Part shown: positions 1-29,165 of the stretch, one piece after another
Position numbering within the stretch: the first letter of the stretch is position 1
How the letters are laid out: each line of letters starts with the position of its first letter
NCBI RefSeq assembly: GCF_000026545.1
Contig: NC_011601.1
From: Escherichia coli O127:H6 str. E2348/69
Lineage (GTDB): Bacteria > Pseudomonadota > Gammaproteobacteria > Enterobacterales > Enterobacteriaceae
Strand: one strand, 5' to 3'
DNA: 64,000 nt
Translations under genes and position numbers: made by a program
The notes under the pieces: generated by a model
The model's input: only the letters and a program-made list of their open reading frames with translations
The model's database searches: none
Told to the model about the DNA's origin: nothing

Positions 1-2079
1 CGCTTTATCCAGCGAACGGAACAGATCTTTATAATCGATAATATAGCCATACTCTTTATCCTCACCGTCCAGCCGGTTCACCCGACAAATCGCCTGAAAC
101 AGCGTATGGTCGGTCATGGTTTTATCAATGTAGAGATAGGTGGCGGACGGCGCGTCAAAGCCAGTCAGCAGCTTATCCACCACGATAAGCAGGCGCATTT
201 GCCCCGGCTCTTCAATAAAACGCTGTTTCACTTCCCGCTCGAACTCGGTAATGCGTGCGGCGGCCTTCTCTTCACTTTGTTCAAAATAGTCAGCCAACAT
301 TTTACGATAGGTGGCGTGTTTAGAGAGTTTCTCCGTTAACCCTTCGCCTGTTTCTTCGCCTTTGATGCTGGCGGCATCGGGGCGATAGCTGGTCACAATC
401 GCTACTTTTCCTGCCAGCTCGGTCTGGCTGAACATCTCGTAAACCTTGCAGGCTTGATAGATACTGCTGCATACCAGCATGGCGTTGCCGCGCCCGTCCA
501 TCAGGCGTGGACGGGTATCCATATCCAACAAAATGTCGTTAACGATCTGCTCCAGCCGCGACTTGCTGGAGAGCAGCTTCTGCATTGATCCCCACTTTTG
601 CTTAAGCTGGGTCCTAGCTAAATTCGACAAGCCGCGAGTCTTGGCTTCAAACCAGTCATCGACCTTTTTCTCTGATGTCAGATACTGGTCAATATCGCGC
701 GCCTCATAGCGCAGATCCAGCACCACACCGTCGGCCACCGCTTCATCAAATTTATAGGTATGGATATAAGGGCCGAACACCTCAACCGACTTCTTCTTAT
801 CTTTCTTCATCAGCGGTGTGCCGGTAAAACCGATAAACAGGGCATCCGGCAGAATGGCAGTCATGGCGTTATGCAGCTTGCCGGATTGTGTGCGGTGGCA
901 CTCATCCACAAAAACAAACAGATCGCCTTTGGCGCAGAATGTTTTCGTCAGGGACTGCTGTAATTCGGTGATAAAGGCGTCGGTAGCCGCATTGTCTTCA
1001 GCTTCGCTGCGACGACCAAATTTATGCACCAGCGAGCAAATAAGCCACGGGTTAGGATGATTGAGCGTTGCGATAAGATCGTTGCCGCTGGAGGTGCGAT
1101 AAATATCTTCATTCACGCCCATAAACACGCTTTCGATCTGTTCATCCAGTTCGGTGCGGTCAGTCACAATCAACACGCGGGAGTTTGGCACATTTTCACG
1201 GATCCACTTCGCCAGCCAGACCATCGTCAGGCTTTTACCCGATCCCTGTGTGTGCCAGATAATACCGCCTTCACGACGGGCAATATGTTGTTTAGCCGCC
1301 TCGACGCCGAAGAACTGATTATGGCGGCAGAGTTTTTTCACCCCGACATCAAAGGCAATGTAATTATGGACGATATCCAACAGCCTGGATTTGCTACACA
1401 GACGACTTAAATGAAAGTCGAGTTTATGTGTATAGTCGCCAGGATTATCTTCTTTCCACTCCAGATAGTATTTTTCCGGGGTTTCGATGGTGCCGTAGCG
1501 CAGGCCCTGCGTATCGTTGCCTGCCATCACTAACTGCATAGTGGTGAAGAAATCGCGGATAAAGGTTTTCTTTTGATTATCGAGATTCTGCCGGATGCCT
1601 TCGCTGACGTGTACTGACGAACGCTTAAGTTCAATCACGCCCAGCGCAATGCCGTTAACGTACAGCACCAGATCCGGGCGCTTGCAGTACTCGCCTTTGA
1701 CCGTCACCTCATCAGCGATGGCGAAATCATTGGCTTGTGGGTTGGCCCAGTCAATCAGCCACACGGTTTGGTTCTGCTCGCCTGCGCCTTCTTTGTCTTT
1801 CACGCCGTAACGCAGCAGGCGATAGACCTCTTTATTGGCGTAATAGAGTTTTTTGCCTTCGCCCAGAGCGGCGGCGGAATCCAGTTGCCGCAACGCCCGG
1901 GTGATCAACGTATCATTAACGCCGCGCCGTTTTAGCCACGCGCTCAGTATATTAGTGTCGATGTTGCTGTTCCCGGTGTACCCGGTGCGGTGACTCAGAT
2001 GGCGGTAACCTAAATCTTCAACAAAAAACTGAATCAGACGCTGCTGTGTGGCGCGTTCGCGCTGGCCCACGGTACTCAA
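1..2079 (-). CDS. hsdR: Type I restriction enzyme R subunit (HsdR), partial; C-terminus runs off the left window edge
   Basis: Reverse-complement translation from ~2079 gives a continuous frame with helicase motifs (WHTQGSGKSLTMVWLA Walker A, FVFVDECHRTQ DEAH-like, GFTGTPL). AAGGAG lies 6 nt upstream of a TTG at 2079; alternative GTG at 2070. Not in ORF track because incomplete. Confidence 0.88.
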   Translation of the reverse strand, partial: MSTVGQRERATQQRLIQFFVEDLGYRHLSHRTGYTGNSNIDTNILSAWLKRRGVNDTLITRALRQLDSAAALGEGKKLYYANKEVYRLLRYGVKDKEGAGEQNQTVWLIDWANPQANDFAIADEVTVKGEYCKRPDLVLYVNGIALGVIELKRSSVHVSEGIRQNLDNQKKTFIRDFFTTMQLVMAGNDTQGLRYGTIETPEKYYLEWKEDNPGDYTHKLDFHLSRLCSKSRLLDIVHNYIAFDVGVKKLCRHNQFFGVEAAKQHIARREGGIIWHTQGSGKSLTMVWLAKWIRENVPNSRVLIVTDRTELDEQIESVFMGVNEDIYRTSSGNDLIATLNHPNPWLICSLVHKFGRRSEAEDNAATDAFITELQQSLTKTFCAKGDLFVFVDECHRTQSGKLHNAMTAILPDALFIGFTGTPLMKKDKKKSVEVFGPYIHTYKFDEAVADGVVLDLRYEARDIDQYLTSEKKVDDWFEAKTRGLSNLARTQLKQKWGSMQKLLSSKSRLEQIVNDILLDMDTRPRLMDGRGNAMLVCSSIYQACKVYEMFSQTELAGKVAIVTSYRPDAASIKGEETGEGLTEKLSKHATYRKMLADYFEQSEEKAAARITEFEREVKQRFIEEPGQMRLLIVVDKLLTGFDAPSATYLYIDKTMTDHTLFQAICRVNRLDGEDKEYGYIIDYKDLFRSLDKA

Positions 2080-2097
2080 AAGGCGCTCCTTAAACCC

Positions 2098-3177
2098 TCA
2101 GCAATGGAACTCCATTACGCGGTTAATGGCAAATTGCAGATTATTATTATCAAACAGCCTCAACTTACGGCTGGCCCAGCGTTCGCCCGCAGGCCACTGG
2201 TGCAGCCCTTCCTTAACGGAGTCCAGCGTTGGTTGACATTCGCCACGGCTCAGCAACCAGTCTACGGTTGCCAGCAACTCCAGACCAAACGGCGATTCAA
2301 AGCCGTCAATTAACTGGCTGACCTGCTCCAGCGCAGGTAGCCACTCTCTGGCTTCGTTGTTCAGATACGCATTAACGTGTTCTTTTTTCTGATCGTTAAA
2401 CCAGATCACATCCAGCGGTTGGCTGTCCGGGATGCGTTTCTCGGCTTTAAGATAGGTGCCGTCCAGCGCATTAAGCAGATGGTTCAGATTGGGCGCATAG
2501 GGGCCATAATAGTGAGCTTCAAACCGCAGTTTGAGGATATCGTCCTGTTGATGCTGCTCAATGGCGCGTTGTAACAGCCAGGCCAGTTTCTGGATTTCCA
2601 GTAGGCTGCACTCCATCCCCAATACCCAGTAGCGACGCACCAGTTCAGCGATGGCGGCTCTGGCGGGAGTGAGCTTTTTTACGCCAGTGCTTTTGGCAAC
2701 GTTCTGGTATTTTTCAGTCGGTTGGTAAATCAGGATATCAACGTCCTGAAGGTCGCCAAGGGCAGATTCAATCTGCGCCCGAACGTCCGGCCAGTTCAAA
2801 CCACCGTTGCCTGCGCCCAGTGGTGGAATGGCGATGGACTGCACGTTCTCTTCAATCAAAAAGCGGCGTAAGTCCTGCAAGCCATCTTCAATCCACTCCA
2901 TGCGGGAATCAGCGCGCCAGTGCTGTTTGGTCGGAAAATTAACAATCCAGCGCGGTCCCATCAGTTCCCCGGTTTCGGTAATGAACATTTTGCCGGTGAT
3001 CACCTGCTTTTGTTTGCAGGCGAGGGCATAGACTTTCATATTTTCGGGGAAGCGCTCTTTAAACATCAACGCGATGCCTTTCCCCATGACACCGACGGTA
3101 TTAACCGTATTCACCAGAGCTTCCACCGGTGCGTCCAGTAAATTGCCTTGTGTATATGTGATCATGAGAAGTACCAT
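2098..3177 (-). CDS. darG: DarG antitoxin (N-terminal macrodomain, ADP-ribosyl-DNA glycohydrolase)
   Basis: 359-aa ORF; macrodomain signature near N-terminus ([26 protein letters not shown]). Alternative ATG at 3165 gives a 4-nt ATGA overlap with the darT stop. Confidence 0.85.
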
Positions 3178-3818
3178 CCAGACCGTGTGTGAACGGACAT
3201 TGTTAGATTACGCTGAAACAGCCATTGTTCTAATTGTAACCTGACCTCTTCGCTGTAACAAATTATCCCATCCAGCAGAGAGATCGGGCAGTGTTGCCAG
3301 ATTAGCGCCTCTGCCTGATAGCGTTCAAATTTAGCCGGATCGTCTGGATCGCGGCGAAAGTCCCGTGCCTGCAAAATGGGCCAGTCGATCTGGTCCAGAC
3401 TATTCAGACTGGTGTAGTAGTTGGTCCAGTTATAGTAAGCATGGCTGTCGGTAAACACGAAGGGCACGTCGTGTGCTGCCACGTTCCGCAAGTTGCTGAC
3501 CAGAATAACGATCTCCTCATTGGGGCGTCGCTTAATGCCGCCGCGCCCGCTGTGGATGTTCATCAGCATTGGCGAGAAGGGGGTAAAATAAAACGGCACA
3601 TAGTCATGCAGTGTCCCGCCCGTTCCGACAGGTACCGGATGCCCGGCACGCTTGCCGATCAGCTCCGGGTTGCCGATATTGATCCAGTTTTCCGCCTGCA
3701 CCAGACTGTTGCCGCAGTGCAGCCCGTTATCCAGAATCCACGGGATATTGTCCCGATGGACGATACGCCAGATCAGGGCTTTTTGCGGGTTGAGGCTGGC
3801 GCTGTAGTCATAGGCCAT
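3162..3818 (-). CDS. darT: DarT toxin (DUF4433 ssDNA thymidine ADP-ribosyltransferase)
   Basis: 218-aa ORF immediately upstream of and overlapping the macrodomain gene; size and sequence as recalled for enteropathogenic E. coli DarT; ATG at 3816-3818. Confidence 0.82.
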
Positions 3819-3829
3819 AGGTTTCCCTT

Positions 3830-5191
3830 CTATATTAAGCGGGTTTTCCCGGTTAACAACTCCTGCATCATCCCCTGTTTAAGCTGACGGGTTTTGTCCA
3901 GACGCTGTTGCAGGGTCTGAATTTCCTTGTCCATATCGGAGAGGATGGTGGCGATGGCGGTTTGTTCTTCTTTTGGCGGAAATGCAAGATGTAATTTCCT
4001 GATAATAGTAAGATTCAACCCACCACGCCCCCCATCACCAGTAGATAAACTTCTCAGTTCCTCATAACGACTGTCGAGGTTATAGAACAGGAATTCTGTG
4101 GAATGATGTTTGCTGGGGAAAATCGCAGCAATAGACTGATTAGTACATAATTCAATGCGATTAATTGCTACAGTCCCTCGAGTCTTTCCTTGTCCTGCCA
4201 ATCCGACTAATACAGAATTTTTAGGCACATACTTTGTACTGGAGTTAACAAGCCCTTCGTCGGTTATATAATCGGCTACAGCATACACCTGTTTTAGGTG
4301 TAATTCGCCGGAACTCATCCAAGGATGAGTTCCTCCCCAATATGCTGAAATTTTAGTACTCGGAGTTCCACCAGCACAGCAGTCAGTAAATTGTCCAATG
4401 CTTGTGACTACCCAATCTTCAGGAATCGCCCCCAACTCGCTCTTTTTATATCCCTTAGCAGAGCCATCTTTGCGCAACGCAAACTGTGGCAAACGGGTTT
4501 TACCAGTCAGTAGTTGCTGCATTGTGGCAGTTTTGATGGACTGTTTTTTTGAGAGTAATTTTTCTAGGGATAGAATCAAGCTATCAACATTGGTTAATAC
4601 ATTAGCAATAGCCTTTTGCTCTACGATATTTTTCGGTATAGATATGCATAACTTCTCTAAAACTGAACGTTTAATCCCTTGGGCCGTTGAACCAGTCGCG
4701 CTTTCAGAAATATATGATTGAAAACGCTCTGATAATAAGATTTGGAGTATTAGTGATGGAGAAAAATTCTCTCTATCTATTTGTAAAAGAATTGTTCTCT
4801 GGCTAAGAATATATTTTTTGTTATCAGGAATAGATGCTGCATTCCCCAGAGGGGCTTCCATTGTGAAAGCTATGTCCCCTTTTTGGGGATGACCGGATGT
4901 CATCCAGCGCTTATATAGTTCTTCGGAACCAAAGTAACATTCAGTAGATAAATCTATATATCCTTTTTTAACATTAGCAGCAGAAAGGGCAACGATATCC
5001 CCATCCCCCCAATCCATTCCAAGTTTTTTGGGAGTTCTGCCGCGATAATCAATTATGTTGGTTGTCAGGTTTAATATCGTGGATACAACCCAATCCTCAG
5101 GAATCATCTCCATCTCAGTCAGCTTATACCCCGCAGGCACACCTTTCCCCACCGTACCCGACCGTTGCTCATTCAGCATTAAATCCACCAT
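3830..5191 (-). CDS. hsdS: Type I R-M specificity subunit (HsdS), two target-recognition domains
   Basis: ~453-aa ORF with the conserved LTGKTRL repeat after each TRD; ATG at 5189-5191 overlaps the hsdM stop by 1 nt (track start 5197 is an alternative GTG). Confidence 0.88.
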   Translation of the reverse strand: MVDLMLNEQRSGTVGKGVPAGYKLTEMEMIPEDWVVSTILNLTTNIIDYRGRTPKKLGMDWGDGDIVALSAANVKKGYIDLSTECYFGSEELYKRWMTSGHPQKGDIAFTMEAPLGNAASIPDNKKYILSQRTILLQIDRENFSPSLILQILLSERFQSYISESATGSTAQGIKRSVLEKLCISIPKNIVEQKAIANVLTNVDSLILSLEKLLSKKQSIKTATMQQLLTGKTRLPQFALRKDGSAKGYKKSELGAIPEDWVVTSIGQFTDCCAGGTPSTKISAYWGGTHPWMSSGELHLKQVYAVADYITDEGLVNSSTKYVPKNSVLVGLAGQGKTRGTVAINRIELCTNQSIAAIFPSKHHSTEFLFYNLDSRYEELRSLSTGDGGRGGLNLTIIRKLHLAFPPKEEQTAIATILSDMDKEIQTLQQRLDKTRQLKQGMMQELLTGKTRLI

Positions 5192-7629
5192 CACCACTCC
5201 AGCCCCATCGCCCGCAAATGCCCGGCCACTTTCTCGCTCAACGCCTCAACGGCGGCTGCAAGTGCTGGCAACGGTTCAGCATAACGCTCTTCCAGCTCCT
5301 TTACGCGCGACGCCAGTTGCTGGGTAATACGCTCTATCTCCGCTTTGATCCCTGCCTGCAATGTTGCCAGCCACTTATCCTGCACTACCAGCGTTTTAAT
5401 CGCTGCTTCATCCAGCGTGGGATAATGTTTAAATACCGCTCGATCCAACGCTTTCTGTGCGGCTTTTAGCGCTTTTTTCGCACTGGCCTCGGCCTTAATC
5501 AGCGCCAGACAGCGGTTCAGCACTGCCAGCTCATCCGGGTCGGCAGGGGTTTTCTTCAACTGTGCCAGACGGGCATTCACCAGCTTTTGCGTCACCTTAT
5601 CTTTATCGTTTTTCGCCTCAGCCAGCAGATCCTCTTCCCCTGCCTGCTCCTCGATGAATTCCACTAGCTGACGACTGGCTTCTTCACTACGCTCCTGCGC
5701 GCGGTTCAGCGCATCCAGCAGTTCCGGGAAACAGCGAATTTCCACCAGCGAACGGGGCAGCACATCGGCCTTGTAGCGCCGTTTGGTAAACTCGAAATCG
5801 TGCGTTTCTTTCCAGATGTTTTTGCCATCTTTGCCTTTCACCGGCTGAAGCTCGCGGATTTGCGCGGCGGCTTGCCAGCCATCCTGCATAATCACATACA
5901 CATCGTCCTGCATGACATCAGCCCAGTAATCCATCAGGATCTGGTACACGCTGTATTTGTTCAGCAACTCACTGTTGGCGTACTGCGCCAATAGCATTTC
6001 GCTGATATCGTGGATTAGCGCTTTGGGTTTATCTCCTTTGCGGATCTCTTCCAGACCTGCCTCTTTTACCCACGACTTAAACGGTAGCAGGCTGCGGGTG
6101 GCAAAATCCTTAAACTCCTGATGAGCCAGAATGGTCGGTTTCACCTGCTGAGCGTCCACTTGCGCCCGGCAGTAACCGGGGTGGTCGTCAGCAAACAGCA
6201 CATTACGCAGGGCAGGGAATACCCGCCAATAATCCTTCAAAGCATCTACATCGCGCACTGGAATACCGCCTTGTAAGTGCGCGGTCAGATCGTGCAAATC
6301 TTCCGGCTCTCCACTCTCGATATAACGAGGAATATTCAGGTTGTAATCATTCCCGGCGATCTCGCTGGAGGGCACCATCCGGCTGTAGCCTGGCACCGTT
6401 CGCTGATGGTTGAACACGTCCACAATACGGTGAATATCTTGGCTACGCAGGCGGTTCTTGTTGCCATCTTTGATAAAGCCCCGACTGGCGTCGATCATAA
6501 AAATGCCTTTGCGGCTGTGGGCGTGCTCTTTATCAATCACAATGATGCACGCCGGGATGCCGGTGCCGTAAAACAGGTTGGCTGGCAAACCAATAACGCC
6601 TTTGATATAGCCCTGCTTGATTAGGTTTTCACGGATATTCGCTTCGGCGTTACCGCGAAACAGTACGCCGTGGGGCAGGATTACCGCGCCTTTGCCGGTA
6701 CTTTTCAGGCTTTTAATGATATGCAACAAAAAAGCATAATCGCCGTTTTTTTCCGGCGGAATACCCCAGCCGAAGCGTTCAAACGGATCTTTTTTTGGCG
6801 TCAGCCCGTTGGTCCAGTTTTTATTGGAAAAAGGCGGGTTCGCCACGGCAAAATCGAAGGCTTTCAGTTTGCCGTTCGCCTCTTTCCACTGCGGATCGCT
6901 CAGCGTATTGCCCTGCCAGATTTTCGCGGTGGCATTGTTATGCAGAATCATGTTCATCCGCGCCAGCGCACTGGTAGCGTTATCCATCTCTTGGCCGAAA
7001 ATCGACAGTCCGCGCCGGGCTTCATCATTCACTTTCAACAGCAGCGAACCAGAGCCACAGGTTGGGTCATAAACCGTTGCATCTCGCGGCGTATCGGGAG
7101 TAATACCAATCACCTTCGCCAGAATACGTGACACCTCCGCCGGAGTGTAAAACTGTCCTTTACTCTTGCCGGATTCGGTTGCGAAGTGACGCATCAGATA
7201 TTCATAGGCATCGCCCAGCAGATCGTCGCCTTCGACCCGGTTGCTGGAGAGATCTAACCCTTCAAAGATACCGACAAGCTTGCTCAGGCGGTCAATCATT
7301 TCCTTGCCTTTGCCGAGTTTATCTTCGTCGTTAAAGTCGGCTTCGTCGATGACGCCCTTCAGGCCGTTCTCTTCCGCCAGCTTGTGGATGATTTTGTTGA
7401 TTTTATCGCCGATCTCTTTGTCATTTTTCAGCGCAACCATATCGTCAAAGCTGGCTCCTTTGGGTATCACGATCATCCCGTAAGGATCGCCTTTATACTT
7501 ATCGGAAACGTACTTCATAAACAGCAGGGTCAGTACATAGTCTTTGTACTGGCTGGCGTCCATCCCGCCACGCAGTTCGTCGCAGCTTGCCCACAGGGAA
7601 GAATAGAGTTCGGTTTTTTTGATAGCCAT
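5191..7629 (-). CDS. hsdM: Type I R-M N6-adenine DNA methyltransferase (HsdM), unusually long (812 aa) with a C-terminal coiled-coil extension
   Basis: HsdM-type N-terminus (ELYSSLWASCDELRGGMDASQYKDYVLTLLFMKYVSDKY), SAM-binding FYTP and catalytic NPPF motifs; ~280 aa alanine/lysine/glutamate-rich helical tail. Confidence 0.88.
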   Translation of the reverse strand: MAIKKTELYSSLWASCDELRGGMDASQYKDYVLTLLFMKYVSDKYKGDPYGMIVIPKGASFDDMVALKNDKEIGDKINKIIHKLAEENGLKGVIDEADFNDEDKLGKGKEMIDRLSKLVGIFEGLDLSSNRVEGDDLLGDAYEYLMRHFATESGKSKGQFYTPAEVSRILAKVIGITPDTPRDATVYDPTCGSGSLLLKVNDEARRGLSIFGQEMDNATSALARMNMILHNNATAKIWQGNTLSDPQWKEANGKLKAFDFAVANPPFSNKNWTNGLTPKKDPFERFGWGIPPEKNGDYAFLLHIIKSLKSTGKGAVILPHGVLFRGNAEANIRENLIKQGYIKGVIGLPANLFYGTGIPACIIVIDKEHAHSRKGIFMIDASRGFIKDGNKNRLRSQDIHRIVDVFNHQRTVPGYSRMVPSSEIAGNDYNLNIPRYIESGEPEDLHDLTAHLQGGIPVRDVDALKDYWRVFPALRNVLFADDHPGYCRAQVDAQQVKPTILAHQEFKDFATRSLLPFKSWVKEAGLEEIRKGDKPKALIHDISEMLLAQYANSELLNKYSVYQILMDYWADVMQDDVYVIMQDGWQAAAQIRELQPVKGKDGKNIWKETHDFEFTKRRYKADVLPRSLVEIRCFPELLDALNRAQERSEEASRQLVEFIEEQAGEEDLLAEAKNDKDKVTQKLVNARLAQLKKTPADPDELAVLNRCLALIKAEASAKKALKAAQKALDRAVFKHYPTLDEAAIKTLVVQDKWLATLQAGIKAEIERITQQLASRVKELEERYAEPLPALAAAVEALSEKVAGHLRAMGLEW

Positions 7630-19479: not shown

Positions 19480-21867
19480 ATGATGCACGAAAAGAACATC
19501 GCCCTGCTTTGTGATGAAGCCGACCGGCTTTTGCAACTGAATATCAATCTGCTCCGGCAAATGGTTGATGAGCCGGATGTGTTATCTGACAGTAAGAACG
19601 AAAACGGGCTGCTTTTTGATAAACGGAAAGCGCTGAAAAGAATTGAGGAGCTGGAGGGCGAACAAATCAAAACCGCCCGCAGGGAGATGGTGCTGGCTGT
19701 GGTCGGCACGATGAAGGCGGGCAAATCAACCACCATCAACGCCATTGTGGGGCAGGAAATTCTGCCCAACCGTAACCGCCCCATGACCTCGGTACCGACA
19801 TTGATCCGCCACGTTCCCGGAAAAACGGAACCGGTCCTCCATCTGGAACATATTCAGCCCGTCCGCAATTTATTAATCACACTGCAGGAAAAACTCGCCA
19901 CCCCGGCAGGGCAGCAAGTCGCACAGTCCCTGCAGCAAACCGGGGATACCCGCGAACTACTGGATATTCTGGCGGATGATGTCTGGCTTAAAAATGAATA
20001 CCACGGGGAAGACGAAATCTTTACCGGACTGGCATCGTTAAATGACCTGGTTCGTCTTGCTGCGGCAATGGGGACTGAATTTCCTTTTGACGAATACGCA
20101 GAAGTGCAGAAACTACCGGTGATCGACGTGGCGTTCAGCCACCTGGTGGGAATGGATGCATGTCAGGGAACACTCACACTGCTGGATACCCCCGGCCCTA
20201 ATGAAGCCGGACAACCACAGATGGAAATGATGATGCGGGATCAACTACAGAAAGCCTCTGCGGTGCTGGCGGTGATGGATTACACCCAGATGAACTCGAA
20301 AGCCGATGAGGAGGTTCGTAAAGAGCTTAATGCCATTGCTGACGTCTCAGCCGGTCGTCTGTTTGTGCTGGTCAATAAATTCGATGAAAAAGATCGCAAT
20401 GGTGATGGTGCGGATGCCGTACGCCAGAAGGTGCCAGCAATGCTGAACAGCGATGTGCTGCCCGCCTCCCGCGTTTATCCCGGCTCATCACGTCAGGCGT
20501 ACCTTGCTAACCGTGCGCTTCATGAGTTACGAAAAAACGGTGCGCTTCCGGTTGATGAAGCCTGGGTCGATGATTTTATCAGGGAAGCTTTCGGACCTAT
20601 GGTGGAAGAGGACGACTGGAAAGACAGCACTAAGGTAAATAAAAAGGCAGAAAAACTCTGGAATATATCTCTGATCGATCAACTGATAACGGAAGTCATA
20701 CAGAGCTCCCATTCCAGAGCGGCGGCACTGGCGGTTGACTCTGCCGCCGCAAAACTGATGCAGAATGCAGAAAATATCAGCGAATATCTGTCATTACGTC
20801 ATCAGGGGCTGCAGCAAAGCATTCAGTCACTACAGGCGCATATTACCAGCCTGCTGGCGGATATCCAGGAGATTGAGGAATGTCAGAATCAGGTGACCGG
20901 TGATGTCAGAATGGCCATGGAGGACATCAATACCAAAACCGGGGAATTACTGACGAAGGTCTGTGCCTCACTGGAGGAGGAGCTGAACGACTATTTCAGA
21001 AGCGGTAAACGCAAAGAACAGCAAATGCTGGAGGAAGAAAATTCAGCGCAGCCCCGGGAGAGAAACGCATTCGCTTTCTTTCACGATATTTTCGGAACCG
21101 GAAATCAGCATGACAGGATGCGGGACTTTGATCCGGACAGCCCCGAAATAAAATTCAGTGATCGCAGGGCAGCCCTTGAACTGATGACGCAAATCGAATC
21201 GACCGTGACCAGCCTGCACCGTGAGGCTGAAGCACAGTTCCGGCCTGAGCTGGAGAAAATCGTCAGCGGGATTGAAACAGGTTTTCGTGGCACGGCCCTG
21301 TACGCCACAGAAAACATTGCCGGTCGCATCAATGCCCGCCTGGAGGATGAGGGCTTTACCGTAAAAATCAGTTTTCCGGCAGTCAGCCAGTTACAGACCC
21401 GGCTCGCGGTAAAAATAAATCTGAGTGCGCTTATGGAGGAAAGAACGGAGACCGTCACCCGTCGCCGTCGGCAGAGTGGCGTATGGGGAACCGTTTGTCG
21501 ATGGTTTGGCACCAGTGACCTGGGCTGGGAAAACTATGACGAGGATGTGAGTCGCAGCGTGATCAATATCAACAAGGTCAGAGAGGAAGTTATGTCACTG
21601 ACCCGGGCATATTTCGGGGAGCTGCAGGCATCCATTGAGCAGGATATTAACCAGCCCGTCCGCCAGGAAATCGATGCCTTTTTCTGCGCATTCAGGGAGA
21701 AAGTTGAACAACTGCGTAACACGCTGATTCAGAGCTCTGAAGATCATAAACGCGATCAGCAGGCGCAGGAACGGCTTACCGGGCGACTTCAGGCATTAAA
21801 TGAAAGGGTTCCTGAGCTCATTACTGACAGTAAGGCGCTGAGGGAAGAGCTGGAGACAATGCTGTGA
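19480..21867 (+). CDS. Dynamin-like GTPase, CrfC/YjdA-like (795 aa)
   Basis: G1 GTMKAGKST (nt 19705-19731), G3 DTPGPNE, G4 NKFD; long helical C-terminal region; resembles recalled E. coli CrfC (YjdA) N-terminus. Confidence 0.85.
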   Translation: MMHEKNIALLCDEADRLLQLNINLLRQMVDEPDVLSDSKNENGLLFDKRKALKRIEELEGEQIKTARREMVLAVVGTMKAGKSTTINAIVGQEILPNRNRPMTSVPTLIRHVPGKTEPVLHLEHIQPVRNLLITLQEKLATPAGQQVAQSLQQTGDTRELLDILADDVWLKNEYHGEDEIFTGLASLNDLVRLAAAMGTEFPFDEYAEVQKLPVIDVAFSHLVGMDACQGTLTLLDTPGPNEAGQPQMEMMMRDQLQKASAVLAVMDYTQMNSKADEEVRKELNAIADVSAGRLFVLVNKFDEKDRNGDGADAVRQKVPAMLNSDVLPASRVYPGSSRQAYLANRALHELRKNGALPVDEAWVDDFIREAFGPMVEEDDWKDSTKVNKKAEKLWNISLIDQLITEVIQSSHSRAAALAVDSAAAKLMQNAENISEYLSLRHQGLQQSIQSLQAHITSLLADIQEIEECQNQVTGDVRMAMEDINTKTGELLTKVCASLEEELNDYFRSGKRKEQQMLEEENSAQPRERNAFAFFHDIFGTGNQHDRMRDFDPDSPEIKFSDRRAALELMTQIESTVTSLHREAEAQFRPELEKIVSGIETGFRGTALYATENIAGRINARLEDEGFTVKISFPAVSQLQTRLAVKINLSALMEERTETVTRRRRQSGVWGTVCRWFGTSDLGWENYDEDVSRSVININKVREEVMSLTRAYFGELQASIEQDINQPVRQEIDAFFCAFREKVEQLRNTLIQSSEDHKRDQQAQERLTGRLQALNERVPELITDSKALREELETML

Positions 21868-22769
21868 CTTCACCATTTATTCAACAAATTGCTGATAACC
21901 GGGTATGTCAGGTACTCACCTGTCTTCCTGAAAAATTTGTGGTTGATTTCGCAAACGGAATCGATGTTGCACAGGAGCATATCCGCACGGCCGGAGAGCG
22001 CACGTTCTTCCGGCGTTTAAAAGAGGGGCTGACCGGCGAAGGCGCTGCACGGCAGAATGCCATCAATGCGTCGCTTGCACAGGGCGTTGAGGCGTCCCTG
22101 CGCTGGCTGACGGAGATGACAACGTCACTTGCCACCACAAACTACGCGATTACCCGGGTAAACGACAGGGTCAGTTCACTGGTCAGTGATACAGCCAGGC
22201 TGGCGCATTATTCCGCAGATACGCGGGAGCAGTTACTCACCCTGGCCGATCAGGTTCACCATAAACTGAATCATCTTGAAGAAAAACTCCACCGTGTTGA
22301 CCAGGTTCAGCGGGCGCAGTTACATCTTGAGCAGATATTCTCATGGTGGAGCGCCGGGCGATATGCGTCATTTTCCCCTGCCGGACGTTGTTATGTGGCA
22401 CTTGAAGAGCTTCGCTGGGGCGCGTTTGGTGATGTGATACGTCAGGGCGAAACAGGCCAGGTTAACCAGCTACTGGATATTCTCAGACATAAAGCATTAA
22501 CGCAGATGGCACAGGAGAGTGGCGGTAGTGCAACCGTGCGTCTGAACACTCTGGACTGGCTTGGTGGTCAGGGCCGGGAGCAGGCAGATAACGAGTGGCA
22601 TGACGCGATTAACTGGCTGGGAGACTGGTGCAGTGAAGAGCAGCATCCGGTGATCTGGTCAACCACGCAGGCTGCAGAACACTTACCGGTTCGCATGCCT
22701 CGCCTCTGCTCTGCAGAACGCCTCTCTGAAAGTATGGTCGATGAAATATTTCAGAAGGGGGCTGCATGA
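21864..22769 (+). CDS. Hypothetical protein (301 aa), YjcZ-like partner of the dynamin GTPase
   Basis: Start overlaps the dynamin stop by 4 nt; no nucleotide-binding motif; size and position match YjcZ next to yjdA in K-12 (sequence similarity to YjcZ not verified). Confidence 0.6.
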   Translation: MTSPFIQQIADNRVCQVLTCLPEKFVVDFANGIDVAQEHIRTAGERTFFRRLKEGLTGEGAARQNAINASLAQGVEASLRWLTEMTTSLATTNYAITRVNDRVSSLVSDTARLAHYSADTREQLLTLADQVHHKLNHLEEKLHRVDQVQRAQLHLEQIFSWWSAGRYASFSPAGRCYVALEELRWGAFGDVIRQGETGQVNQLLDILRHKALTQMAQESGGSATVRLNTLDWLGGQGREQADNEWHDAINWLGDWCSEEQHPVIWSTTQAAEHLPVRMPRLCSAERLSESMVDEIFQKGAA

Positions 22770-23836
22770 GTACAGAAATGAAAACGGGGCTGGTGCTGTC
22801 CGGTGGCGGGGCGGTGGGCGCTTATCAGGCGGGAGTGGTTAAGGCACTGGCAGAGTGTGGTACACAGATCAGCATGGTTTCAGGGACCAGCATTGGCGCA
22901 TTCAATGGTGCCATTATCGCGGCCTCTCCCGATCTGTCAGAAGCTGCCGTACGCCTGGAGGCGCTCTGGGAGCATCTGGGGAATAATCAGGTGCTGTCGG
23001 TAAACAGATTGGTTTACTTTTCATTGCTGAAAAAATTGTTCCAGGCAATGAACCTCTGCCAGATCCCCGGACGTGCAGGAGCACTGCTTACGACGCTTCT
23101 TCGCCATATATCGACAATCAACGGGTTTGACAATCTGATGGCTCAGCCGTTGTTGTCAGATGAGCCCCTGACAGCGCTGATGGATCATTATCTTGATACT
23201 GATGCTCTGGCAGACGGGCTACCGCTGTATGTGTCGCTGTACCCCACAGAAGGGGGCATGCAGGATATTATTGACTGCATTCGTGCTGAACTGGGTGTCG
23301 GAACCACGAAAAACGCCGTTTTTCAGCATATCCAGAGCCTGCCCCGCGGACAGCAGAAAGAGGCTCTGCTTGCGTCAGCCGCGCTGCCCCTGCTGTTCCG
23401 TCCCCGTGAGGTTCAGGGGACAATGTTCGGTGATGGTGGTATGGGAGGATGGCGAAATATGCAGGGAAATACCCCTGTGACGCCTCTGGTCGATACCGGA
23501 TGCAATATGGTGATTGTGACGCATCTGAGTGACGGTTTTTTATGGGATCGCAAGGCTTTTCCGGACACCACAATCCTTGAGATCCGTCCCCGGAAAAGGC
23601 TGAAATATGCAGGTGATGGTGGCAACAGCGGCGGTCTGCTCAGTTTTACATCGGCACATACCGACGCCTGGCGTCAGCAGGGCTATGAAGACACGATGCT
23701 GGCGATGGAGCATATCCGGAAACCGCTGGCAGCACGTCAGGCACTGACCCGGTCAGAGGCGGTATTGCAGAAAAGCCTGGATATAACGGAAGAGGCAGAT
23801 TTGGCACTGAGAAACGCGATGGCCCGGATTAAATAA
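22766..23836 (+). CDS. Patatin-like phospholipase (356 aa)
   Basis: Oxyanion-hole GGGxxG (LSGGGAVGAYQAG), nucleophile elbow GxSxG (GTSIG, nt 22883-22897) and catalytic-Asp DGG (FGDGG) motifs; start overlaps the previous stop by 4 nt. Confidence 0.85.
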   Translation: MSTEMKTGLVLSGGGAVGAYQAGVVKALAECGTQISMVSGTSIGAFNGAIIAASPDLSEAAVRLEALWEHLGNNQVLSVNRLVYFSLLKKLFQAMNLCQIPGRAGALLTTLLRHISTINGFDNLMAQPLLSDEPLTALMDHYLDTDALADGLPLYVSLYPTEGGMQDIIDCIRAELGVGTTKNAVFQHIQSLPRGQQKEALLASAALPLLFRPREVQGTMFGDGGMGGWRNMQGNTPVTPLVDTGCNMVIVTHLSDGFLWDRKAFPDTTILEIRPRKRLKYAGDGGNSGGLLSFTSAHTDAWRQQGYEDTMLAMEHIRKPLAARQALTRSEAVLQKSLDITEEADLALRNAMARIK

Positions 23837-24108
23837 AGACGCCCCAAAGAAACGCCACCGCCTGTGGTGGTGTTTTTCCTGTCTGGTGTTATTGAAAATA
23901 TTTTCAGATATATATTATCTGGGTGATGGTTAAGATGAATTTATTTAATTTTGGGGGAAGATACAAAAACAACCAGTGAACATATTTCCGGCGGGTTATC
24001 CGCAATGCTGAAGGTCCGTTGCACTGGCGATGCCGGAATACAGCTTAATACGTGGTTCGCCAGTGAAGGGCTTCTCAGACAATAAACCTCATTCATTTCA
24101 CCCATCAG

Positions 24109-24139
24109 GCCGCGTCTTCTCCGGGAGACGCGGCTTTTT
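24109..24139 (+). terminator. Rho-independent terminator-like hairpin
   Basis: GCCGCGTCT-loop-AGACGCGGC followed by TTTTT, ~270 bp after the patatin gene and before the DUF932 gene. Confidence 0.6.
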
Positions 24140-24175
24140 CATTTATATCGCTTAATCATTCATAAGGAGCAAATC

Positions 24176-29077: not shown

Positions 29078-29165
29078 TGGCGGTGAGGGGGGGATTCGAA
29101 CCCCCGATACGTTGCCGTATACACACTTTCCAGGCGTGCTCCTTCAGCCACTCGGACACCTCACC
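29078..29165 (-). tRNA. serX: tRNA-Ser (anticodon GGA)
   Basis: Reverse complement reads GGTGAGGTGTCCGAGTGGCTGAAGGAGCACGCCTGGAAAGTGTGTATACGGCAACGTATCGGGGGTTCGAATCCCCCCCTCACCGCCA; next to ghrA as in K-12. Confidence 0.9.

Follow-up and report, generated by a model that had tools for sequence, protein, structure and literature searches.

The closest described relatives of the locus considered here are RdcA (CrfC/YjdA) and RdcB (YjcZ) of E. coli K-12. They activate DgcE, a diguanylate cyclase, by way of its MASE1 membrane domain (PMC6510439). RdcA binds RdcB, and GTP inhibits RdcA; the role of these two proteins, the sole characterised members of the kinship, lies in c-di-GMP signalling and not in immunity (PMC6510439). 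Eleos, by comparison, is made up of consecutive dynamin-like proteins (bioRxiv 10.1101/2022.05.11.491447), while the patatins of CBASS are membrane-degrading effectors that stay off until activated. In E. coli E2348/69, the window (64,000 nucleotides of contig NC_011601.1) harbors, from 19480/19483 to 23836, co-oriented genes for a dynamin-family GTPase, a YjcZ/RdcB-family protein and a patatin phospholipase, hereafter the trio. They make up a self-contained, horizontally mobile three-gene cargo of a CP4-type integrative island at tRNA-Ser.

Layout of the operon and its products

The features of the locus are as follows.

19379..19482, + strand: 5' untranslated/intergenic region of the operon, with an SD-like AAGGTG at 19473-19478
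19480..21867, + strand: ORF1, dynamin-family GTPase, RdcA/CrfC/YjdA paralogue (795 aa; WP_000544657.1)
19693..20379, + strand: G domain of ORF1 (aa 72-300), with G1 K82/S83, G2 T103, G3 D236-G239 and G4 N299-D302
20560..20679, + strand: dimorphic cassette 1 of ORF1 (aa about 361-400), with two allelic forms among E. coli
20998..21204, + strand: insertion of the trio-type dynamin (aa about 507-575), a gap in the core RdcA alignment
21864..22769, + strand: ORF2, YjcZ/RdcB-family all-helical partner (301 aa, GTG start; WP_000203541.1)
22766..23836, + strand: ORF3, patatin-like phospholipase (356 aa; WP_000102671.1)
22889-22891 and 23432-23434, + strand: ORF3 active-site codons, Ser42 and Asp223, respectively
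23853-23872, + strand: terminator-like hairpin and T-run from a consensus scan, 17 nt past the ORF3 stop

The genes are packed into a single unit, the stop codons of the first two overlapping the start codons that follow. ORF1 and ORF2 meet in a GTGA at 21864-21867 (context ...CTGTGAC...) and ORF2 and ORF3 in an ATGA at 22766-22769 (...GCATGAG...), exactly the co-oriented arrangement with 4-nt overlaps that an earlier note on this DNA had described. RefSeq places the start of ORF1 at the second ATG (19483, giving 794 aa), and the AAGGTG at 19473-19478 fits this start better than the one at 19480. The native 5' region has been kept in E2348/69 despite an upstream Ag43/Cah deletion, with 99.5% identity between 19379..19482 and the cah-dynamin intergenic region of O157:H7 (L088 7235-7338). 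A consensus scan of the 5' region yielded no promoter-like sites above shuffle expectation. The hairpin after ORF3 agrees with a transcription unit of three genes; the scan found 8 terminator-like sites in the region versus 4.9 +/- 2.4 in shuffles, which is no clear excess. All three genes are under purifying selection, and no transmembrane segment is found in any of the three proteins.

The motifs that the earlier note had read in ORF1 and ORF3 are present at the residues it gave, with Pfam matches far beyond chance, and both catalytic centres are intact in the predicted proteins. ORF1 matches Dynamin_N (5.4e-18, residues 72-300) and carries G76TMKAGKST84 (with K82), T103, D236TPGPNE242 and N299KFD302, G1 to G4 being conserved across 27 orthologues. 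Its C-terminal half, described in the note as helical, returned weak coiled-coil-type Pfam matches and nothing stronger. ORF2 matches the YjcZ family (PF13990) end to end (3.2e-70, residues 26-296); this is its sole family match, and no GTPase or NTPase family is matched at E <= 0.001, in keeping with the claim that it lacks a nucleotide-binding motif. The proposed kinship with CrfC/YjdA and YjcZ also holds: over their full lengths, ORF1 is 33% identical to K-12 RdcA and ORF2 30% identical to K-12 RdcB, which at the level of sequence establishes them as paralogues of this GTPase-partner pair.

ORF3 matches Patatin (PF01734, 2e-24, residues 9-239) through G13GGxxG18, G40TS42IG44 and D223GG, and G13GGxxG18, G40xS42xG44 and D223G224 are invariant in its 27 orthologues. 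Its AF2 model (pLDDT 79) ends in a single long helix (aa 296-355). The best Foldseek match is PlpD (1e-11), followed by CapV/CapE (about 1e-7 to 1e-8) and VipD (1e-7).

The insertion of ORF1 combines a DFDPxxPxIxF motif with a charged linker and a short patch of hydrophobic and aromatic residues, an architecture kept in the 27 orthologues. Among E. coli alleles, cassette 1 is 55-57% identical, as against 95-100% in its flanks, and a second dimorphic cassette inside the insertion (aa about 521-560) is 32% identical. The two cassettes reassort independently, and YjcZ is nearly invariant. Windowed dN/dS is below 1 throughout, and the dimorphism could stem from simple recombination among old lineages instead of selection.

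Distribution, neighbourhood and prior notice

Of 5426 complete E. coli genomes, 2432 have the dynamin gene and 2498 the patatin gene, presence being counted at >= 80% coverage; about 45% carry the module, in the cargo slot of CP4-type islands and in up to 4-5 copies each. This abundance may reflect hitch-hiking, because the trio sits within the semi-conserved YeeP/Ag43 ... DUF932 part of these islands. Conserved co-occurrence, which the note had put forward as a check, is borne out in other species: among 80 loci retained from a one-genome-per-species scan, 27 non-redundant ones have the three genes as a block, with the same order and overlaps, in Gamma- and Betaproteobacteria and one Kiritimatiellota MAG, and on plasmids as well. 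Hosts of these loci include Escherichia albertii, Pantoea, Erwinia, Pseudomonas, Gallionella, Paraburkholderia, Allochromatium, Thiodictyon and Marinospirillum, together with one Pontiellaceae MAG. The trio is also present in Vibrio vulnificus, Pseudomonas fluorescens and Pectobacterium, and IS-flanked copies lie on IncF plasmids. The three genes move as a set among remotely related bacteria and between kinds of replicon. The trio was not found in phage collections. Its surroundings vary among loci, as expected for a mobile cargo module. The third gene is a patatin in every trio, with no effector swapping seen; a patatin gene again follows distant YjcZ representatives, and one locus (L093) pairs a DUF3944-YjcZ fusion with a patatin of the same subfamily, without a dynamin.

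The E2348/69 island, integrated at tRNA-Ser, also bears a type I R-M/DarTG locus, a CbeA/CbtA pair and an antirestriction gene. The note was right about this shared island, but the R-M/DarTG locus does not lie beside the trio; the two are about 12 kb apart, with a block of IS elements between them. The suggestion of a defence-island setting stands for part of the family, since defence-type genes or WYL regulators occur nearby in about half of the independent trio lineages, the other half or so of those surveyed having no recognisable defence neighbour. In the flanking sequence retrieved for 29 trio loci, WYL-type regulators of three families were detected at 13, with a detector that is imperfect and also matches in 6 of 52 control pair loci. 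The trio has BREX as its neighbour in V. vulnificus, and in P. fluorescens it is close to a SIR2 gene and a BrxR-type regulator. In Erwinia, Pantoea and Paraburkholderia it is flanked by PDC-M27 genes. A JukA-like gene follows immediately downstream in four loci, a MADS mad2-like methyltransferase lies nearby in Allochromatium, and PDC-S24 (3e-178) is adjacent in HdN1. This evidence for defence is circumstantial.

The operon is unnamed, yet it has been noticed before, and hence the novelty claimed in the note was largely right but overstated. PADLOC-DB v2 has no model for the trio, which falls outside Eleos, CBASS and the RdcA equivalog alike. A 2026 transcriptome paper called the operon a putative dynamin defence system and reported its strong up-regulation in E. 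coli MP1 lysogenised by Kapi1 (PMC12922286). DefensePredictor (2026) lists this dynamin, in an operon of identical 4366-nt geometry, as a 'Predicted novel defense gene', with log-odds of 6.7-7.7, and 'dynamin' is absent from its table of tested systems (PMC13092281). Elsewhere, the label 'membrane modeling genes' has been used (PMC13182975). The literature searched contains no report, for the trio, of phage protection, toxicity, GTPase-gated lysis or interaction between its patatin and the GTPase pair.

Candidate function

We give an even chance to the reading that the trio is a conflict system in which the GTPase/YjcZ pair gates the patatin effector. The dynamin-like GTPase, a soluble protein, would bind its YjcZ partner in the manner of RdcA and RdcB, and their complex would keep the phospholipase silent. 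A trigger, most plausibly phage infection or the entry of another mobile element, would release or activate the lipase, and degradation of inner-membrane phospholipids would then stop the cell, as in abortive infection or conflict. The trigger might be sensed by the dynamin's variable insertion loop or by way of a drop in GTP; in the model for RdcA, the nucleotide-free form is proposed to be active. YjcZ may be the lipase-proximal adaptor, because the dynamin-less variant keeps the YjcZ domain and the patatin with another N-terminal module. Favouring this reading are the 4-nt overlaps, the conserved co-occurrence, the WYL and defence-type neighbours, the DefensePredictor call, the up-regulation in lysogens, the gated-patatin precedents and the dimorphic cassettes of the dynamin next to a nearly invariant YjcZ. 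The invariable patatin is unusual for sensor-effector immune systems and counts against defence, as do the lineages lacking a recognisable defence neighbour, the possible hitch-hiking in E. coli, the missing PADLOC model and the role of the characterised relatives in biofilm signalling.

A rather unlikely alternative is a membrane-homeostasis or signalling device, in which the GTPase pair would dock on the membrane or a membrane protein and the patatin would remodel or remove lipids locally (for repair, vesiculation or envelope stress) or make a lipid signal, to the benefit of host or island physiology, e.g., biofilm or aggregation. The control of DgcE via MASE1 by the sole characterised homologues (PMC6510439), the 'membrane modeling' label (PMC13182975), the part played by bacterial dynamins in membrane repair (B. 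subtilis DynA, cited in PMC12922286) and the half of loci without defence neighbours are consistent with it, but the proteins have no transmembrane segment. The trio directly follows the aggregation adhesin Ag43/Cah in many E. coli; this linkage is, however, missing in S88-type E. coli and in all non-Escherichia loci. Moreover, the patchy, mobile, plasmid-borne, IS-flanked and WYL-paired occurrence is the pattern of a conflict system rather than of housekeeping.

It is unlikely that the module serves the mobile element itself, either by addiction or stabilisation, with the GTPase pair restraining a toxin-like lipase, or as a weapon against rival plasmids or islands rather than phages. The trio is always on integrative islands or plasmids, reaches 4-5 copies in an E. 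coli genome and is missing from phage collections, and its neighbours include establishment-type genes (antirestriction, RadC/JAB, CbeA/CbtA, DUF932). Its position within islands nevertheless varies, the Pectobacterium trio lying at the far end, after DUF4942, and anti-phage islands are the more typical place for WYL regulators and for neighbours of the BREX, PDC and Juk-like kinds. The similar presence of dynamin and patatin genes also speaks against addiction or rivalry between elements, as there is no preferential loss of the lipase gene. This alternative overlaps the defence hypothesis, and sequence separates the two poorly.

That the patatin is a host-directed virulence factor like ExoU or VipD, with the GTPase pair as chaperone or regulator, is highly improbable: ExoU and VipD are among its fold and sequence matches and the island occurs in EPEC, EHEC and ExPEC strains, but the closest matches span the catalytic core only, ORF3 shows no secretion signal or effector-type extra domain, no secretion-system genes adjoin the trio, and its carriers include free-living Gallionella, Thiodictyon, Allochromatium and Marinospirillum as well as commensal and soil E. 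coli.

Comparison with known systems

The trio and RdcA/RdcB (K-12 locus L007) have two protein families in common, identically ordered and overlapping by 4 nt, and K82 and T103 of ORF1 occupy the same positions as in RdcA. The trio differs by its third, translationally coupled patatin gene, by the roughly 60-aa insertion of its dynamin and by its mobile, patchy occurrence, whereas RdcA/RdcB are fixed chromosomally between yjdM and proP. ORF1 scores 567.8 bits against the NCBIfam CrfC model, below the cut-off of 1146, and the trio dynamin falls outside the core RdcA clade in 200/200 bootstraps; the pair without a patatin makes up a clade of its own, confined to Enterobacteriaceae. Most parsimoniously, core RdcA/RdcB would have arisen by loss of the lipase and then been put to use in c-di-GMP control, a direction that depends on the root of the tree.

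Like Eleos (LeoA/LeoBC), the trio has a bacterial dynamin-like GTPase and occurs in islands with defence genes. The similarity of ORF1 to LeoBC is marginal (weak HMM matches, 1.6e-5), and the remote-homology column of DefensePredictor points to Eleos LeoBC too (PMC13092281). Unlike Eleos, the trio combines one dynamin with a non-GTPase YjcZ partner and a lipase.

ORF3 shares the patatin fold and Ser-Asp dyad of CBASS CapV/CapE, but its best structural match is PlpD and not CapV, it scores 22.5 against NCBIfam CBASS_lipase (cut-off 200), and the PADLOC CBASS effector models match residues 9-73 only. In contrast with CBASS, no CD-NTase or any cyclase lies in or adjoins the operon. CapV/CapE filaments and VipD-Rab5 are gated-patatin precedents among its fold matches. 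VipD of Legionella, a patatin phospholipase A1 activated by binding of the GTPase Rab5 (PDB 4KYI), offers a precedent for a GTPase-switched patatin. VipD differs in being a secreted effector that works with a small GTPase of the host and in possessing a C-terminal domain dedicated to Rab binding; the C-terminus of ORF3 is one long helix instead. The likeness is one of analogy and not of homology of the regulatory part.

ORF1 is of the dynamin family, as are the animal Mx GTPases and B. subtilis DynA, which are antiviral. Neither is known to have a lipase partner. In the stalk of Mx, a variable insertion, the specificity loop L4, evolves rapidly, and the variable insertion of ORF1, as far as its sequence pattern indicates, resembles this loop.

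The operon and its island

The three genes of the trio share one orientation and overlap at both junctions, with GTGA between ORF1 and ORF2 and ATGA between ORF2 and ORF3. The ORF listing and the junction reads both agree with the earlier note, which had described three overlapping, co-oriented ORFs at these positions, and each motif that it quoted for ORF1 and ORF3 was found at the residues to which it had been assigned.

Features of the trio and its island in window coordinates (for the island gene order, these equal the coordinates of L001, the home island locus, minus 701)
1-7629, minus strand: type I R-M operon with darT-darG between hsdS and hsdR (RefSeq annotation)
5191-7629, minus strand: hsdM (RefSeq)
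3830-5191, minus strand: hsdS (RefSeq)
3162-3818, minus strand: darT (RefSeq)
2098-3165, minus strand: darG (RefSeq)
up to 2079, minus strand: hsdR (RefSeq)
16973-17844: YeeP-like 'GTPase family protein', frameshifted
18047-19465: Ag43/Cah autotransporter remnant (RefSeq pseudogene ~18176-19438)
19480-21867, plus strand: ORF1, dynamin, 795 aa (RefSeq 'dynamin family protein')
21864-22769, plus strand: ORF2, YjcZ, 301 aa, GTG start (RefSeq 'diguanylate cyclase regulator RdcB family protein')
22766-23836, plus strand: ORF3, patatin, 356 aa (RefSeq 'patatin-like phospholipase family protein')
23853-23872: hairpin and T-run, 3' of the ORF3 stop codon

RefSeq starts ORF1 at its second ATG (19483), which better fits the SD-like AAGGTG at 19473-19478. 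A promoter scan 5' of ORF1 returned no site above shuffle expectation. Window 19300-24150 is matched at 100% by NZ_CP059840.2.

The island that bears the trio ends at a tRNA-Ser gene (window ~29078-29165). Its order runs from hsdR-darG-darT-hsdS-hsdM through an IS block, the frameshifted YeeP-like GTPase gene and the Ag43/Cah remnant to the trio, 3' of which come DUF932, antirestriction, RadC/JAB (yeeS) and yeeT genes, a CbeA/CbtA-type toxin-antitoxin pair, and DUF5983, DUF957 and DUF4942 genes. The trio had been placed in a mobile island beside the R-M/DarTG locus, the CbtA/CbeA pair and an antirestriction gene; all of these do belong to the same island, but ~12 kb, with IS3, IS66 and IS30 elements (~10899-16730) in between, separate the R-M/darTG operon from the trio.

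Compared with that of O157:H7, the cah gene of E2348/69 has lost its final 1.15 kb, including the stop codon, and its 5' part has been replaced as well. The remnant ORF runs into the former cah-dynamin intergenic region, where it stops at 19463-19465, and the 104-nt region 5' of the dynamin gene has been kept, with 99.5% identity to O157:H7. In other E. coli, an intact Ag43/Cah gene is followed by 110 nt and then by the trio, while in S88-type islands the trio comes directly after the YeeP-like GTPase gene, without an adhesin. Since the adhesin can be present or absent 5' of the trio among E. coli islands, the trio is cargo, carried in a variable slot of CP4-type elements, and not an accessory of Ag43. 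Elsewhere, the YeeP-like GTPase gene is intact and again neighbours the trio (E. coli S88, E. albertii, Serratia oryzae, P. fluorescens and Paraburkholderia); this recurrence may simply reflect a common island backbone. Weak LeoA/LeoBC matches (~1e-11) were obtained with the copy from Paraburkholderia. On the other side of the trio, the 340-nt gap between the patatin and DUF932 genes contains a stretch (window 24028-24146) that matches the 'DUF905 family protein' annotation of other E. coli and is probably a remnant in E2348/69. The gap ends in a strong terminator-like hairpin with a 13-bp stem (24107-24136), and in S88-type islands it harbors two additional hypothetical genes.

Proteins, distribution and descent of the trio

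By its G domain sequence, ORF1 is a member of the dynamin superfamily (Dynamin_N PF00350, 5.4e-18, residues 72-300, in Pfam), and its G1 residues K82/S83, T103, the DxxG and the NKxD motifs are conserved in all 27 orthologues. Its sequence match in the PDB is the Nostoc BDLP (2J68, 1.8e-7), over the G domain only. The trio-type dynamins have an insertion of ~60 aa (~507-575 in ORF1) that is missing from RdcA and in which 'YFxEGK' is followed by a charged linker, a short hydrophobic/aromatic patch, a basic stretch and 'DFDPxxPxIxF'; the hydrophobic patch is only suggestive of membrane binding. ORF2 matches YjcZ (PF13990, 3.2e-70) from end to end in Pfam. Going by its motifs and predicted fold, ORF3 is a patatin-like phospholipase (Patatin PF01734, 2e-24, in Pfam). 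Its oxyanion GGGxxG, nucleophile GxS42xG and catalytic D223G motifs are invariant in the 27 orthologues, as are the subfamily-specific residues G227 G228, Q233 G234 N235 T236 P237 and L241, and its predicted structure consists of a patatin core and a single long C-terminal helix (296-355). The earlier note had named CapV of CBASS as a patatin phospholipase that serves as a membrane-degrading effector. A Foldseek search returned the patatin fold and ranked PlpD best, followed by CapV/CapE and then VipD, the probability being 1.0 to all of these and to patatin; the VipD structure entry, 4KYI, is a complex with the GTPase Rab5. No transmembrane segments were found in ORF1, ORF2 or ORF3.

Among complete E. 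coli genomes, 2432 of 5426 have the dynamin gene and 2498 of 5426 the patatin gene at a coverage of at least 80%, in 1 to 5 copies per genome. This corresponds to carriage of the trio by ~45% of complete E. coli, including EPEC, EHEC and ExPEC. Public data (P0017, P0024, P0042 and other entries) contain many E. coli patatins shortened to ~200-260 aa, some of them under the wrong name 'ferredoxin reductase', and also a few proteins that look like fusions of YjcZ or the dynamin with the patatin and are likely to be frameshifts or assembly artefacts.

The conserved co-occurrence of the three genes, which the earlier note had proposed as a check, was borne out when a dynamin alignment with K-12 RdcA among its members was used to scan a single genome of each species. 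Of the 80 kept loci that were classified, 27 non-redundant ones have the full trio, from Gamma- and Betaproteobacteria and one Pontiellaceae MAG, and 52, every one in Enterobacteriaceae, have only the dynamin and YjcZ genes; these pair-only loci are the chromosomal rdcA-rdcB orthologues, with the K-12 order phn/yjdM - rdcA - rdcB - proP. Three loci were cut by contig ends. A single locus has the dynamin gene alone (L025, 181-2610, from an Oceanospirillales MAG). It codes for a trio-type dynamin of 809 aa, with no YjcZ or patatin detected; a 291-aa ORF follows the dynamin gene, and the opposite strand carries two large genes. Patatin orthologues with 45-65% identity occur in Pectobacterium, Yersinia, Erwinia, Plesiomonas, Providencia, Vibrio, Budvicia and Pseudomonas, and contigs of P. 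fluorescens, V. vulnificus and Pectobacterium have the dynamin, YjcZ, patatin order with overlaps. IncF plasmids of Klebsiella, Enterobacter and E. coli also carry the trio, with IS elements on either side. The genes that flank the trio differ almost wholly from lineage to lineage, and such near-complete turnover marks it as an autonomous mobile module. No match was found in GenBank phages (tblastn), IMG/VR or PHROGs, which indicates that the module is not phage-borne.

With 510 clusters at 50% identity among 1.84 billion proteins, the YjcZ family is small, and a patatin gene again follows the genes of its distant members. In a gammaproteobacterial locus without dynamin (L093, 6001-8630), a 532-aa fusion of DUF3944, a Ubiq_cyt_C_chap-like domain and YjcZ precedes a patatin gene that overlaps it by 4 nt; the patatin belongs to the same subfamily and is 38% identical to ORF3, and the two genes lie beside parE/parC. 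That YjcZ and the patatin are kept there without the dynamin marks them as the tightest link in the module. This locus, in which the dynamin is swapped, is the sole variant, and effector swapping, i.e., dynamin and YjcZ genes with another third gene, was not seen among the loci surveyed. The flanks of the trio contain no conserved fourth gene, with patchy recurrence only of WYL regulators, the YeeP-like GTPase and a JukA/MsyB-like gene.

The trio also places RdcA/RdcB (CrfC/YjcZ) in an evolutionary setting; clamp binding and DgcE activation are the functions between which opinion on this pair is divided (PMC6510439). Budvicia and Serratia oryzae have the trio-type genes that are the nearest relatives of the Enterobacteriaceae pair (K-12 rdcA-rdcB, L007, and loci L033-L087). 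In an unrooted NJ tree of the dynamins, both the pair-only clade and the split that unites the core with Budvicia and Serratia oryzae have 200/200 support; support in the YjcZ tree is 20/200. The nesting of the core RdcA/RdcB inside the trio clade is an argument from parsimony, the dynamin tree being unrooted. Because the trio type is much the more diverse (minimum identity of 33% vs 53%), has a far wider taxonomic range and includes even the remotest YjcZ relatives, it is more parsimonious that an ancestor of the Enterobacteriaceae lost the patatin. The biofilm regulator RdcA/RdcB may thus descend from the mobile trio, domesticated and without its lipase.

Defence context and possible mechanism

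In a small hand-made survey, about half of the independent lineages had defence-type or WYL neighbours, which speak circumstantially for a role in defence or conflict; the others had none. Many trio loci have a WYL-domain regulator encoded upstream, three different families of these being represented, and in V. vulnificus, Gallionella and P. putida it directly adjoins the trio; their count, 13 of 29 trio loci, is approximate, as the jackhmmer detector also matched 6 of 52 control loci. In V. vulnificus, the trio has BREX genes 3 kb downstream, a BrxR-type regulator, SIR2 and an ADP-ribosylglycohydrolase are encoded in its vicinity in P. fluorescens, and a MADS mad2-like methyltransferase gene is near it in Allochromatium. 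In HdN1, PDC-S24 (3e-178) is directly downstream. Genes matching the PADLOC candidate defence system PDC-M27 (A/B/C-like) adjoin the trio in two unrelated lineages, upstream and behind a WYL regulator in Erwinia and Pantoea (L010/L011, ~1076-6861) and downstream in Paraburkholderia (L018, ~12494-15852), which could reflect either common island residence or a functional link. A gene for a JukA/MsyB-like acidic protein comes directly after the patatin gene in four loci of Pseudomonas, Erwinia and Pantoea (L002, 11090-11428; L010, 11394-12218; L011, 11412-11876; L014, 11479-12216, the last matching PADLOC JukA at 1e-31).

The trio has already been flagged as a candidate in two 2026 papers. DefensePredictor lists E. 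coli 'dynamin family proteins' of 794 and 798 aa as 'Predicted novel defense gene', with log-odds of 7.7 and 6.7 (PMC13092281). The operon span of its ECOR entry, 2850-7215, equals 1071 + 906 + 2397 - 8 nt, exactly the trio, and its dynamin accessions belong to the WP_0005446xx-7xx block that also contains the fetched alleles. 'Dynamin' is missing from its table of tested systems (PMC13092281). The other paper, which reports induction of the operon in Kapi1 lysogens, labelled it a putative dynamin phage defence system and, in the literature, found nothing to link the lipase with the dynamin (PMC12922286). Experimental work on the function of the trio, including phage protection, was not found in the literature searched.

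Nine alleles from E. coli and E. albertii were compared, with identities of 97-100% for YjcZ and 87-100% for both the patatin and the dynamin. The differences in the dynamin are clustered in short cassettes, at aa 361-400 and 521-560 and, more weakly, at 461-500 and 661-700. Each of the two main cassettes has two forms, which reassort independently (A+a in E2348/69, B+b in S88, B+a in strain 1450), and the 521-560 cassette falls within the trio-specific insertion. A specificity-determining surface would be expected to look like this. However, windowed dN/dS was <1 throughout, which does not demonstrate positive selection in the cassettes, and old recombining lineages therefore account for the pattern equally well.

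A scheme for the module can be drawn by analogy with RdcA/RdcB, regulators of c-di-GMP that act on the MASE1 domain of DgcE. RdcA binds RdcB; its K82A variant, unable to bind GTP, is fully active and the hydrolysis-deficient T103D variant inactive, from which it was concluded that GTP inhibits RdcA, which is active when free of nucleotide (PMC6510439). By the same logic, a GTP-loaded ORF1/ORF2 complex would keep the patatin inactive until a trigger turned the complex into a lipase-activating form acting through YjcZ. Possible triggers are a component of a phage or MGE, which the variable insertion or the cassettes would recognise, and a drop in GTP upon infection. The activated patatin would then hydrolyse phospholipids, leading to growth arrest or death. 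The Rab5-activated VipD and the ligand-activated CapV/CapE are precedents for a gated ORF3, and a role as lipase adaptor is likely for the small, structurally unclassified YjcZ family.

The core idea of the earlier note survives this analysis. It is very probable that the three genes work together, and a role in defence or in inter-element conflict, competition between MGEs included, is mildly favoured; the specific gating scheme, built on analogy, is possible, with somewhat less than an even chance of being correct. A still broader picture can be proposed, in which nearly half of E. coli would carry an unnamed immune system whose dynamin reads infection via an Mx-L4-like loop or GTP depletion and whose YjcZ adaptor unleashes a membrane-destroying patatin, with RdcA/RdcB as its domesticated, lipase-less descendant linking immunity to c-di-GMP signalling; taken as a whole, it is rather unlikely. 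The mechanism is directly testable, given the obvious mutational handles at both catalytic sites (K82 and T103 of ORF1, S42 and D223 of ORF3). If the trio is an immune or conflict system, it constitutes a common, unnamed addition to the defence repertoire of E. coli, also present on Klebsiella and Enterobacter IncF plasmids, and a second, mechanistically different use of a dynamin-like GTPase in bacterial immunity, in which the effector is a recognisable enzyme. Without a role in defence, the trio would still be a widespread GTPase-lipase module on pathogenicity islands.

Comparison with known systems

ORF1 aligns with RdcA over its full length at 33% identity, and ORF2 is 30% identical to RdcB. 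In K-12 rdcA-rdcB and in the trio alike, a YjcZ-family gene lies directly downstream with overlapping codons. Nevertheless, ORF1 scores 567.8 bits with the CrfC equivalog model NF007368, below its curated cut-off of 1146, and lies outside the core RdcA clade (200/200 support); judged by its sequence, it is a paralogue of RdcA, not RdcA itself.

Identity with CBASS was rejected, as no CD-NTase cyclase is encoded among the trio genes or their annotated neighbours; ORF3 reaches 22.5 bits with the CBASS lipase model NF041079, whose cut-off is 200, and its match to PADLOC CBASS effector models is limited to residues 9-73. The trio was likewise distinguished from Eleos, which has two or three consecutive genes for dynamin-like GTPases, whereas ORF1 is a lone GTPase gene, ORF2 matching nothing but YjcZ and ORF3 nothing but Patatin. 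ORF1 matches PADLOC LeoBC at 1.6e-5 (22 bits), with no stretch passing alone, and does not match LeoA.

The earlier note knew of no described system of this kind, and scans of the three proteins against PADLOC-DB v2, NCBIfam and PHROGs indeed returned no named system and no phage family, but a claim of complete novelty is too strong in view of the two 2026 papers. The trio is best described as an unnamed variant among the 'NTPase-controlled effector modules on defence or mobile islands'.
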